Virus genome (UHGV): UHGV-0029174
DNA length: 37,642 nucleotides
Strand: one strand, 5' to 3'
DNA from: a virus
Shown here: piece by piece, positions 25,293 to 27,752 of the stretch
Position numbering within the stretch: the first letter of the stretch is position 1
Layout: every line of letters begins with the position of its first letter
Notes under the pieces: model-generated
Seen by the model: only the letters and a program-made list of their open reading frames with translations
What the model was told of the DNA's origin: nothing
Database searches by the model: none
Translations under genes and position numbers: made by a program

Positions 25293-25469
25293 TTACGCAG
25301 TTCTGTATATCAGTCCGTTATCAAGCAGTGTTTGCATGTGTTCGCGATCCATGTCGCTTAATTCCCAATAAGGAACATCTTCATTCCTTATCATCACCTC
25401 TTCGCCTCTTACCAAATAGGCGATGTCAAATACCTTATGAAAATACATACCGTCTTCGATCTCGTTCAT
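25293..25469 (-). CDS. hypothetical protein (58 aa)
   Basis: ATG overlaps stop of upstream gene (ATGA); ends before terminator; below track size cut-off. Confidence 0.35.
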   Translation of the reverse strand: MNEIEDGMYFHKVFDIAYLVRGEEVMIRNEDVPYWELSDMDREHMQTLLDNGLIYRTA

Positions 25470-25648
25470 AGGTCGCTAACCTTCACCAGTTCACCAGCAT
25501 TAAGAAATATTTTAATTGTTTCTCGCGTCGTCTTAATGATTGGCTCAACCCACTCGCCACCGCCAACACGGATACGAATATCATCACCTTCTACGCGGTA
25601 AAACAGCCCGTCTACTATTGTTGCTGCGTACACCCCATCTTTAATCAT
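25466..25648 (-). CDS. hypothetical protein (60 aa)
   Basis: Track ORF; start overlaps upstream stop. Confidence 0.45.
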   Translation of the reverse strand: MIKDGVYAATIVDGLFYRVEGDDIRIRVGGGEWVEPIIKTTRETIKIFLNAGELVKVSDL

Positions 25649-25839
25649 TTCTTGCGCTCCTTAATGGCTCGCCTGATTTGCACCGCCGTAGCATCGAAGA
25701 AAGCGAGAAACATCACTACAGGCCATAAAGGAATCTCGAGGCCACCAGGTTCAGCGCCGCTATACTTAATAAAACACGACATCAGGATCGCACCAGCGAT
25801 ATAAAGCAAAACAATCACAGCTATAAGACATTCAATCAT
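25645..25839 (-). CDS. small membrane protein (two predicted TM helices; ~64 aa)
   Basis: Hydrophobic segments; ATG 25839 with SD GAGGA chosen over the track TTG start. Confidence 0.45.
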   Translation of the reverse strand: MIECLIAVIVLLYIAGAILMSCFIKYSGAEPGGLEIPLWPVVMFLAFFDATAVQIRRAIKERKK

Positions 25840-26092
25840 AATCATCGTCCTCGTCGTCATGTTCAGCCAGGAACTCATCAACGACGCGGCAAGTTACTGG
25901 CGGGATGTATTCGAAATCATCAGAATCGAGATCAAGCGTCCTGCTGTCGCCGTCGTCGTCCAGCGTATTCATCCCTAATTCACCGAAAGGGCCATACCCA
26001 ATGCGGCCCATATATTCGCAACCAATCGTAAAACCAGGATATTCGCCTTTACACCTGATCTTGTATAGCTTATTTGATGCGCTCAATTTCAA
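25832..26092 (-). CDS. hypothetical protein with acidic C-terminus (DDEDDDYD)
   Basis: Track ORF (TTG start); strong SD AAGGGGGAA upstream. Confidence 0.45.
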   Translation of the reverse strand: MKLSASNKLYKIRCKGEYPGFTIGCEYMGRIGYGPFGELGMNTLDDDGDSRTLDLDSDDFEYIPPVTCRVVDEFLAEHDDEDDDYD

Positions 26093-26393
26093 TTCCCCCT
26101 TCTACCCCTTCAGTCATTTTGTATTCCGCAAACAGTTCAGCGCCAAGTAATTCGACATCAGTATCACCAATACCAGGGAACGCCAGATAAGCAAAAATAA
26201 GGCTTTTAATTCTATTCAGGTCTTCAAGATGGTCTGCATTAAAAGGCGGTTCAGATACGTGAAAGCATTTAACGTGCGCATCGTCTTCAGTAGCTACACG
26301 GAAACATACGCCACGTTCACCTGCGAATTGTCCAATTTCTTTATCTTCTGGAAAATTGCCACGGAAAACCTTAACGCTGATAAATTTATACAT
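26070..26393 (-). CDS. hypothetical protein (107 aa)
   Basis: ATG 26393 with SD AAGGAG; track ORF extends further. Confidence 0.5.
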   Translation of the reverse strand: MYKFISVKVFRGNFPEDKEIGQFAGERGVCFRVATEDDAHVKCFHVSEPPFNADHLEDLNRIKSLIFAYLAFPGIGDTDVELLGAELFAEYKMTEGVEGGIEIERIK

Positions 26394-26415
26394 TGTTATT
26401 CTCCTTCGTAAGAAA

Positions 26416-26727
26416 TTAAAATTCTGCACCAGGTAAGCTACGCGCTTTATTTACCGCATCGTGTTTTAACGATAAACCAGCGTGATAATTCATAATCCCC
26501 ATATTACCAACCGGTATTTCATTATTTTCTGCCTTTATTCTTAACAACTGGTTTTTAGTGAAGATCCTGTCTCCATCAGTGATATATAACCAGTCGCCGC
26601 GCTTACCAACAACAACATGAGATCTGCCTAAGCTGTCTTTAAATTCATAATTGCAGAAAACATCACCTTTAGGCACTTCAACAAAACAGCACGCAATGAA
26701 CTTATCGCTTTTCATGATTTTGCCCAT
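26416..26727 (-). CDS. hypothetical protein (103 aa)
   Basis: Track ORF; first gene after internal promoter/palindrome. Confidence 0.5.
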   Translation of the reverse strand: MGKIMKSDKFIACCFVEVPKGDVFCNYEFKDSLGRSHVVVGKRGDWLYITDGDRIFTKNQLLRIKAENNEIPVGNMGIMNYHAGLSLKHDAVNKARSLPGAEF

Positions 26728-26744
26728 CCGTCTTTCAGTGGCTT

Positions 26745-26785
26745 ATATATAACAAAATGGCACTGCCTAAACAATGCCATTTCGT
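26745..26785 (-). promoter_or_regulatory. internal promoter-like element with palindrome ACAAAATGGCA-N12-TGCCATTTcGT and extended -10 (TGT-TATATA)
   Basis: 11-bp inverted arms with 1 mismatch; minus strand CCATTTTGTTATATA upstream of ATG 26727. Confidence 0.4.
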
Positions 26786-26827
26786 ATACATTGTGATACA
26801 AGTCACATTTTGCGCAATTAACTTTTA

Positions 26828-27079
26828 TCAGAAAACCCCTTTATAATCGACCGTGTACTTTGCAACCAATTTCCAGTCACAATAGTTTTCCATGTCGCGC
26901 GGTTGCCATCCTTTCATCCACACAGAACTACGTGCAGCGTGACGGCGACAATAGTCGTTAAGGTCTACAACACACCACGGCTGAAGGACAAGCATGTATC
27001 CTGCCTCGTTAACCAGGATCGCCATCTGCTTTCCTGTTGCCTTATCTTTCGCCCGGAAATAACTTACCCTGATTTTCAT
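26828..27079 (-). CDS. hypothetical protein (83 aa)
   Basis: Track ORF; SD GAGGTAA. Confidence 0.5.
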   Translation of the reverse strand: MKIRVSYFRAKDKATGKQMAILVNEAGYMLVLQPWCVVDLNDYCRRHAARSSVWMKGWQPRDMENYCDWKLVAKYTVDYKGVF

Positions 27080-27290
27080 TTTGAATTACCTCAATCAACA
27101 TTTCTTCTTCCAGGTTAGCCGGACGTTTACGAAATATTCCGGCAAAAACCAAATCGTCGAGTAGGTCTTTACGCTTAAATAGCCACTCCTTCATTATTAC
27201 CCCGTCGTCGCTGCGATATACGACGCCGTTTTTCAGAAAATAAAAAGTGCGGGTGTTTGTCTGGAGGTATAGATCTTCGTAAACGTCCAT
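27042..27290 (-). CDS. hypothetical protein (82 aa)
   Basis: Track ORF; SD GAGGG. Confidence 0.5.
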   Translation of the reverse strand: MDVYEDLYLQTNTRTFYFLKNGVVYRSDDGVIMKEWLFKRKDLLDDLVFAGIFRKRPANLEEEMLIEVIQNENQGKLFPGER

Positions 27291-27294
27291 GATG

Positions 27295-27522
27295 TTAACC
27301 CTCGACTACTTCCAGCCCGCGCCCCTTATCGCCAACGAAGTCGCCCAGGCTGAACGTATACGACCATGCCGGATTTATGTAATGGTCATCAGCGCCAGCG
27401 GCGATTAAATCAGCACCGTTAATCATGCAAGTGACATCATCGCCATGAACGACATTAACCACCTTACCAACAACCTGTTTCAGTGACGGATAACCGTGAT
27501 CGTGCAAGAATTTTACCTTCAT
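27295..27522 (-). CDS. hypothetical protein (75 aa)
   Basis: Track ORF; start overlaps upstream stop. Confidence 0.5.
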   Translation of the reverse strand: MKVKFLHDHGYPSLKQVVGKVVNVVHGDDVTCMINGADLIAAGADDHYINPAWSYTFSLGDFVGDKGRGLEVVEG

Positions 27523-27752
27523 TCCTCTGTCTCCCAGCGCTCAATACTGATTAAAAAGTCACGGATAGCGTGGCGCTCGTCGCGCGTTGGTTTGCGCTTA
27601 CGGTAAATTTTAAAATCGAACCATTCCTTTTCCTGGTCGAAATCCAGATCGTAAGCAAGCGCCTCAATGTAACCGCATTCGTGATACTGGTACGCCACGC
27701 CAGCACGAACAAAAAAGCGGGTTTTATCCCGCTTGTGTTCATAGATACGCAT
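27519..27752 (-). CDS. hypothetical protein (77 aa), first gene of the island between Q-like gene and lysis
   Basis: Track ORF; SD GGGG; preceded by 108-bp intergenic region. Confidence 0.5.
   Translation of the reverse strand: MRIYEHKRDKTRFFVRAGVAYQYHECGYIEALAYDLDFDQEKEWFDFKIYRKRKPTRDERHAIRDFLISIERWETEE

Follow-up and report, generated by a model that had tools for sequence, protein, structure and literature searches.

Ten small genes between the Q antiterminator and the holin of an Escherichia coli gut phage: the conserved backbone of a gene-content hotspot

Between a gene for a Q-like antiterminator and the lysis cassette, the virus genome UHGV-0029174 (37,642 nucleotides (nt), the whole of which is denoted the window here) carries ten small open reading frames (ORFs), o1 to o10. 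The question raised by this locus is whether these ORFs are accessory cargo of the sort inserted in the Q-to-holin interval of lambdoid phages, at which stage of infection they would be expressed, and what their products might do. The original prediction, made from the sequence alone, treated the interval as an insertion site for such cargo and suggested anti-defence, defence or host-takeover functions. Comparison with related phages, by which that prediction proposed to assess the variability of the region, revealed a fixed backbone interspersed with optional blocks: the interval between Q and the holin is a hotspot of gene content in phages of the mEpimmI group, and the ten ORFs constitute the conserved backbone of this hotspot rather than its variable cargo.

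Judged by nucleotide similarity and synteny to six mEp phages, the window belongs to a temperate E. coli gut phage of the mEpimmI (mEp021-like) group. The region is 87-92% identical at the DNA level to mEp021, mEp010, mEp013, mEp044, mEp515, mEp554 and MagusPhagus, shares the gene order RusA-g60-Q-...-holin-lysozyme-Rz with the mEp phages, and also matches prophage sequence in 35 of the 5,426 complete E. coli genomes. The mEpimmI group, described in 2025, is Nus-dependent, possesses an N-like antiterminator, Gp17, along with a Q-like protein, is classed as non-lambdoid, and was reported to be as frequent as the lambdoid phages among human faecal isolates (PMC11893012). About half of the mEpimmI genes are flexible and unstudied. 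The relatives analyzed here comprise 18 phages and prophages, compared over the Q-to-holin interval, and four metagenomic or genomic contigs (22 altogether); the presence of genes was counted by tblastn over all 22, and ratios of nonsynonymous to synonymous substitution rates (dN/dS) were obtained pairwise by the Nei-Gojobori method against the 18.

All ten ORFs are real genes, and purifying selection acts on them. They follow one another on the minus strand at 25293-27752, all in the same orientation, as originally described, and are not chance ORFs because homologs are found in 17 to 22 of the 22 relatives and dN/dS falls between 0.06 and 0.40 (Table 1). The flanks named in the original prediction, Q and the lysis cassette, were identified by Pfam matches to PF03589 and PF16080, respectively, with the genes for lysozyme and Rz adjoining that of the holin. 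The claim that many of the genes are translationally coupled also holds: from o1 to o10, the junctions measure -4, +4, -38, +100, +22, -17, -8, -4 and -4 nt, that is, seven of the nine are overlaps or gaps of at most 4 nt. The starts of three ORFs were corrected in the course of this comparison. For o6, the alignment of the relatives and the PHROG profiles place the start at the ATG at 26393 (107 instead of 119 aa), the alignment with phrog_23107 beginning at residue 13 of the long ORF. The start of o7 was moved to a TTG at 26086, which is preceded by a GGGGGA Shine-Dalgarno sequence 7 nt upstream, and that of o8 to the ATG at 25839 (MIECLI), which overlaps the o7 stop codon. The PGAP annotation of several RefSeq prophages (L003, L004, L010 and L011 among them) gives the o7 homolog as a protein of 45-46 aa that starts at an internal ATG. 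The form of 82-86 aa with a non-ATG start seems the more likely one because the 25 codons upstream of the internal ATG, which encode the N-terminal residues of the longer form, are conserved in frame among the relatives.

Table 1. Coordinates and properties of the ten ORFs and of the neighboring features of the window (relatives, number of the 22 relatives in which the gene is present; ΔG, folding free energy)
Feature	Position	Strand	Relatives	dN/dS	Remarks
Q antiterminator	28061..28783	-		0.09	240 aa; lambda-type; PF03589 (Antiterm), E 4.9e-30; upstream flank of the array
g67	27861..28064	-		0.11	67 aa; coupled to Q by an ATGA overlap; outside the ten ORFs
Deletion scar	27753..27860	-			truncated 5' end of F11 joined to what lies before o1 in relatives
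o1	27519..27752	-	22/22	0.06	77 aa; 92-98% identity; phrog_30442, unknown function
o2	27295..27522	-	22/22	0.08	75 aa; phrog_5009
o3	27042..27290	-	22/22	0.12	82 aa; 3' end overlaps o4 by 38 nt; no PHROG
o4	26828..27079	-	22/22	0.14	83 aa; isoelectric point (pI) 9.4; phrog_38609
Conserved intergenic element	26745..26807	-			palindrome TGTGA-N6-TCACA (26792-26807), then 21-bp hairpin with U-tract (26745-26791)
o5	26416..26727	-	19/22	0.21	103 aa (alternative ATG at 26715); 59-99% identity; flexible
o6	26070..26393	-	18/22	0.40	107 aa, from ATG 26393; flexible; phrog_23107
o7	25832..26086	-	20/22	0.16	84 aa; TTG start; predicted SH3-like barrel, C-terminal helix, acidic tail
o8	25645..25839	-	20/22	0.31	64 aa; small membrane protein; strong N-terminal transmembrane helix, weaker second hydrophobic segment, basic C-terminal tail; phrog_10061
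o9	25466..25648	-	17/22	0.31	60 aa; paralog of o10
o10	25293..25469	-	20/22	0.21	58 aa; paralog of o9 (29% identity)
GC-rich hairpin with U-tract	25248..25269	-			ΔG -16 kcal/mol, z-score -3.8; 5' edge of the g232 insertion module
g232	24533..25231	-			232 aa; C-terminal DUF559 (E 3.8e-5, above cut-off); weak N-terminal KilA-N match (E 0.0014, below cut-off)
Putative late promoter (PR' analog)	24508..24548	-			TTGCAA (24543-24548), 17 nt, TAGCAT (24520-24525), 6 nt, AACAAT (24508-24513)
Intrinsic terminator (TERM_5; T8-T10 in relatives)	24475..24493	-			ΔG -17.2 kcal/mol; present in 18/18 relatives; 24 nt separate its end from the holin start codon
Holin	24250..24450	-		0.09	66 aa; HP1 family; PF16080, E 1.6e-14; start of the lysis cassette, downstream flank of the array

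When all minus-strand ORFs of the 18 phages and prophages are clustered, a common order emerges, in which optional blocks (in parentheses) alternate with fixed genes: Q, g67, (F22 F11 F2 F24 F9 F5), o1, (F27), o2, o3, o4, (F26 F1 F23 F20 F17), o5, (F15), o6, o7, (F31), o8, o9, o10, (F42/F43), terminator, holin. The interval holds from eight genes (in mEp021) to 28 (in strain KKa019), drawn from about 30 families, and its composition differs in every one of the 22 relatives, so that the region is indeed a variable insertion site. The ten ORFs themselves are a different matter, given that o1-o4 are present in all relatives and the other six in 17 to 20 of the 22, and the view that they are the variable cargo had to be abandoned. 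The window has kept the backbone but hardly any optional block. Nearly all relatives have a block of 1.3-3 kb with four to eight genes between g67 and o1 (F22, F11, F2, F24, F9 and F5 in the common order); it is absent here and has left a recognizable scar: of the 108 bp between g67 and o1, nt 1-33, which take in the beginning of family F11, correspond to what comes directly after g67 in relatives, and nt 40-108 to what comes directly before o1. The remnant of F11 amounts to 25 codons (27794-27871). The backbone is not required in its entirety for lytic growth. Genes o5-o9 are dispensable in plaque-forming relatives because mEp021, which lacks o6-o9, and mEp013, which lacks o5-o8, still form plaques on K-12 (PMC11893012). 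The split between backbone and variable blocks indicates which genes should be deleted first and which should be screened for strain-specific phenotypes.

The timing of expression hinges on the position of the late promoter. A late promoter of the lambda type is to be expected in this phage because Q of the window is homologous to lambda Q along the whole length (35% identity over 99% of the length to the Q proteins of lambda, HK97, HK022 and P22). Q is thus of the lambda type although the mEpimmI group is classed as non-lambdoid (PMC11893012). A candidate, followed by an intrinsic terminator, was detected downstream of the array, directly before the holin gene (Table 1); at the same site, the relatives have TTGTAG-17-TAAAAT-N7-AACAAT. 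In layout, with a -35 element, a 17-nt spacer, a -10 element and, after 6-7 nt, a second -10-like hexamer, these sequences match PR' of lambda (TTGACT-17-TAAATT-N6-AACGAT). All 18 relatives aligned there retain the stretch that begins with the -10 element and ends with the terminator, at a divergence of about 4% compared with a dS of 0.16 in the neighboring holin gene, and the PR'-like motif with its adjoining terminator is alone among the non-coding elements of the Q-to-holin interval in being shared by all of them. The terminator is annotated in mEp021, mEp044, mEp010 and mEp013, and we assume that it is the one published as "t5". In lambda, PR' and tR' directly follow Q, and cargo inserted downstream is Q-dependent, whereas here the predicted promoter and terminator appear to come after the array and abut the holin gene. 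With the late promoter in this position, the array would be an extension of the delayed-early operon and not Q-dependent cargo. The lambdoid analogy drawn in the original prediction probably does not extend to Q-dependent expression of the interval. If this placement is correct, up to 7 kb of early genes would separate Q from its site of action, an arrangement unlike that of lambda that alters the predicted timing of gene action.

Within the array, the 100-bp gap between o4 and o5 contains a conserved element for which an internal promoter and a palindrome had been proposed. The palindrome is real (about 26745-26791): the hairpin (ΔG -23.1 kcal/mol, z-score -5.8, followed by UUUUGUU) is kept in 16 of the 18 relatives irrespective of which genes flank it. 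Its stable 21-bp stem and U-tract suggest that it is probably an intrinsic terminator within the array, and in mEp044, mEp010 and mEp554, independent ARNold predictions list the same element among the Rho-independent terminators. The promoter fared less well, as a consensus scan found no sigma-70 promoter on the coding strand of the gap, in which only a weak candidate, TTGTTT-17-TGtTATATA, could be read by eye.

A search for function in the proteins themselves returned little, in agreement with the original statement that none of the ten has a recognizable motif. Pfam and NCBIfam gave nothing significant for any of them, and PADLOC-DB 2.0 yielded no defence-protein family at E ≤0.1, so that the suggestion of a defence function was not borne out. 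Eight of the ten ORFs match PHROGs over the full length (E 1e-26 to 1e-60; the exceptions are o3 and o5), yet the families concerned (30442, 5009, 38609, 23107, 25234, 10061 and 15318) are all of unknown function, and membership in them carries no functional information. Sequence searches of the PDB with o1-o7 produced only noise, the best match being that of o1 to the tandem Tudor domain of UHRF1 (weak, E 0.033); o4 has no PDB sequence match, and o5 has none in the PHROGs, Pfam or the PDB. No sequence or structural match was found to characterized inhibitors of defence (anti-CRISPR proteins, DNA mimics of the Ocr/ArdA type, anti-RecBCD proteins and others), and searches of Pfam, the PHROGs, NCBIfam and PDB sequences revealed no resemblance of any of the ten to known structural, replication or lysis proteins. 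Every record labels the homologs of these ORFs as hypothetical, except for gp41 of mEp021, the homolog of o3.

What can be said of the products comes mainly from structure models. Those of o7 and o9 are confident and correspond to small binding-type folds, without a match to any enzyme. The model of o7 is a five-stranded barrel with SH3 topology, which assigns the protein to the SH3-like small beta-barrel fold. This is also the protein with the strongly acidic tail noticed originally: its pI is 4.1, and the last 45 aa include 19 D/E and two K/R. When o7 is compared with DNA mimics, the negative charge is seen to reside in the C-terminal helix and in a tail modeled with low confidence (predicted local distance difference test score, pLDDT, of 57-70) and is not spread over the barrel. 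The idea that o7 contains a mimic of the tail of the single-stranded DNA-binding protein SSB was considered and rejected, the IPP motif being internal and located inside a predicted strand. Proteins o9 and o10 share an alpha/beta fold of about 60 aa that recurs in uncharacterized proteins of many phages, and a third subfamily exists in the relatives. Searched exhaustively by HMMER with the o9/o10 profile, 1.84 billion proteins yielded only 22 representatives, and the source names among the homologs of the o7 and o9/o10 families are only E. coli or uncultured phage. The profile also matches proteins of 697-3321 aa (P0186 and P0193-P0197) in 3-12 short stretches each, probably repeat-motif noise resembling the FYRVEGD hairpin. 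Kinship of o3 with o9/o10 is not claimed, as the hhalign probability was 40% locally and fell to 11% with a deeper alignment.

The explanation that we favor, at about even confidence, is that the array forms the distal, Gp17-antiterminated part of the delayed-early operon and encodes small binding proteins for host takeover or counter-defence. Under this scheme, the ten genes would be co-transcribed with Q at the distal end of the delayed-early rightward operon; the N-like Gp17 would carry transcription through the internal terminators, including the o4-o5 hairpin; the lambda-type late promoter would lie after the array, directly before the pre-holin terminator; the products, small single-domain proteins without a catalytic motif, would bind host or competitor proteins early in lytic growth; and the array would diversify through gain and loss of whole genes and through in-frame recombination between paralogs. 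Both the timing and the role are inferred. An early role in takeover or counter-defence is preferred because the genes are small, non-catalytic, of binding-type folds, partly dispensable, mosaic and located in an interval that fits the operational definition of a phage accessory region, and the counter-defence genes of phages tend to cluster in variable regions of small non-essential genes (bioRxiv 10.1101/2023.04.06.535777). The anti-defence and host-takeover functions put forward originally are therefore still plausible, although no ORF matches a characterized protein of this kind.

Several observations weigh against this explanation and lend substance to its rivals. As regards timing, one of the two sequence variants of the putative late promoter has no recognizable -35 element. 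A competing PR'-like motif, GTGACA-16-TAAGCT-7-AACGAT, is found at 28038-28078, immediately after the Q stop codon and inside g67; it is conserved only with the g67 allele of the window, most relatives having g67 homologs of 85-97% identity, two a divergent allele (52% identity), and mEp021 and mEp044 none. Were this motif PR', the array would be Q-dependent late cargo in a long leader of the late transcript, whose internal terminators Q-modified RNA polymerase would read through, as in the case of stx. Its location corresponds to that of PR' in lambda, AACGAT is identical to the lambda pause element, and two terminator-like hairpins downstream are what a Q-controlled unit would have. We nevertheless consider such an arrangement unlikely. 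The motif lies within a coding sequence, its -10 element fits the consensus at three of six positions, a loose pattern of this kind occurs three times in the window against 1.8 expected, and it is missing in the viable phages mEp021 and mEp044 as well as in two prophages with the other g67 allele; not being present in all relatives, it cannot be an essential late promoter and was set aside in this capacity. The opposite departure from early lytic expression, in which o5-o10 would be prophage-expressed morons with functions in defence, superinfection exclusion or lysogenic conversion, driven by a promoter in the o4-o5 gap that is possibly CRP-dependent, appears quite improbable and is the least supported of the readings. 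It draws on the palindrome TGTGA-N6-TCACA, which we take to be the core of the CRP consensus and which occurs twice in the window against 0.05 expected; here it is perfect, its center lies some 61 bp before the transcription start that the weak extended -10 candidate would have, and the upstream hairpin could insulate an o5-o10 unit. However, only eight of the 16 relatives that have the element preserve the right half of the palindrome, the scan found no promoter on this strand, and small single domains without PADLOC matches do not resemble multi-gene defence systems. Furthermore, the other copy of the palindrome in the window (30766-30781) forms the tip of the t4 terminator hairpin beside nutR2, next to an rrn-like boxA, which suggests that the palindrome is a hairpin sequence rather than a CRP site here too, and a CRP-dependent internal promoter was set aside on these grounds. 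The nutR2-like region itself (30690-30790) contains a boxA of the rrn type (TGCTCTTTAAAAAT) and a short hairpin with an A-rich loop, with the terminator hairpin located upstream.

The remaining difficulties concern function. No ORF matches a characterized anti-defence, host-takeover or regulatory protein, and the proposed role is deduced from context and fold; the universality of o1-o4 and their dN/dS of 0.06-0.14, low like those of Q and the holin, fit a core life-cycle function better than arms-race cargo; and gp41 of mEp021, a homolog of o3 with 95% identity, carries the annotation of virion structural protein, which an early gene would not be expected to yield. On this basis, o1-o4, and perhaps o8, might instead be core genes for replication, morphogenesis or lysis timing; for instance, o3 might belong to the minor or ejected proteins of the virion, and o8, a small membrane protein near the lysis cassette, might modulate the neighboring holin. 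We regard this possibility, too, as rather doubtful. The label of gp41 comes from mass spectrometry (PMC11893012), and the criteria were permissive (one peptide per protein at a 4% false discovery rate). Apart from the lack of resemblance to known structural, replication or lysis proteins, o8 matches no holin family (Pfam Phage_holin_3_5, E 0.78, not significant), is missing in mEp021 and mEp013, and is encoded upstream of the pre-holin terminator, so that its assignment as a holin or antiholin was rejected.

The closest known counterparts of the array are found in other phages. In lambda and P22, the nin region, which adjoins Q, comprises small delayed-early ORFs of the PR operon, most of them non-essential. 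Like the present array, it is a packed, coupled and mosaic series of small ORFs in an N-antiterminated rightward operon with internal terminators, and both are mostly dispensable, of unknown function and variable between related phages. The two differ in that the array is downstream and not upstream of Q, shares no sequence similarity with the nin genes, and would be early only by inference; the window phage has a NinF/NinG/RusA block of its own upstream of Q. The cargo sites between Q and S of lambdoid and Stx phages are similar in their location between Q and the holin and in their variable content. The accessory regions of Silas et al. (bioRxiv 10.1101/2023.04.06.535777) have in common with the Q-to-holin interval conserved flanks, a content that differs in every relative, and some genes that occur in unrelated phages, but the ten ORFs of the window are mostly the invariant part, and none of them matches a characterized counter-defence gene. 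A further system among the closest to the array is Gp54 of phage Bas11 (PDB 9axb), a non-essential small protein with a beta-barrel structure that has no known function but triggers the CapRelSJ46 defence (PMC11578894). Arrays of small genes of unknown function are the rule in temperate phages, and the present one is unsurprising in kind.

The diversification of the array is apparent from in-frame chimeras in the protein database. Some of these join the N-terminus of F1, F26, F15 or o6 to the C-terminus of o7 (in P0048, for example, the N-terminal half of o6 has recombined with o7), and others begin with the N-terminus of o7 and end with the C-terminus of either o10 or the third o9 subfamily. 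In most of them, the junction is at or near a common DD(D/E)GD motif. A single fusion among the chimeric proteins (P0043-P0053) combines o7 with the C-terminus of Q. The simplest reading is that chimeras arise by deletions between neighboring co-directional genes at short shared motifs, which suggests a simple route by which small phage proteins can diversify. The chimeras also suggest, and do not prove, that several array families have the barrel of the o7 type; F1 and F26 are related according to hhalign (probability 75%), and F1 and F23 weakly so (42%). A Pfam scan of ten variable families from the relatives gave one weak zinc-ribbon match. One might picture the post-Q region as a self-diversifying repertoire of small binding domains, which recombine at DD(D/E)GD and serve as counter-defence factors or as decoys for immune sensors; we put this forward as speculative and improbable. 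The domains would be the barrel of o7, perhaps those of F1/F26, the N-terminal half of o6 and o1, and in addition the o9/o10 fold. Protein o3 would perhaps be packaged, and in virions it might act before gene expression.

Other features of individual genes complete the description of the backbone. Full-length homologs of o2, with 40-43% identity, are found in 119 phage records; those listed are rV5-like (Vequintavirinae) genomes of about 136 kb, and in phage Murica the homolog lies within a cluster of small hypothetical genes. The window thus shares o2 with virulent rV5-like myophages. The C-terminus of o3 occurs in two variants among the relatives (L011-L014, L016 and L017 are concerned), a long one (...VIQNENQGKLFPGER) that overlaps o4, at 27042-27079 in the window, and a short one (...DEVLK) that does not. 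The membrane protein of the original prediction is o8, with a single strongly hydrophobic N-terminal helix and a second, weaker segment. Within the phage collection searched, o8 is restricted to mEpimmI phages, and it is located about 1.2 kb upstream of the lysis cassette in the window and a few hundred bases upstream in relatives without g232. An Rfam scan of 24000-29000 found nothing above chance, and no tRNA genes were found in the window.

The gene g232, between o10 and the pre-holin terminator, is outside the ten ORFs and is the only rare gene in the interval of the window. Its DUF559 domain can be read as a predicted nuclease of the PD-(D/E)XK type, and its 3' end provides the -35 element of the putative late promoter. 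The gene was not found in the 5,426 complete E. coli genomes or in the 18 phages and prophages, and no full-length counterpart was detected in 50,697 phage records; the hairpin at 25248-25269 has no counterpart in relatives that lack g232. An identical g232 protein is encoded at exactly the same site in gut-metagenome contigs of about 55 kb with differing arrays. With a nuclease domain, a sporadic distribution and the same site of insertion in different genomes, as is typical of homing endonucleases, g232 looks like a homing-type selfish gene.

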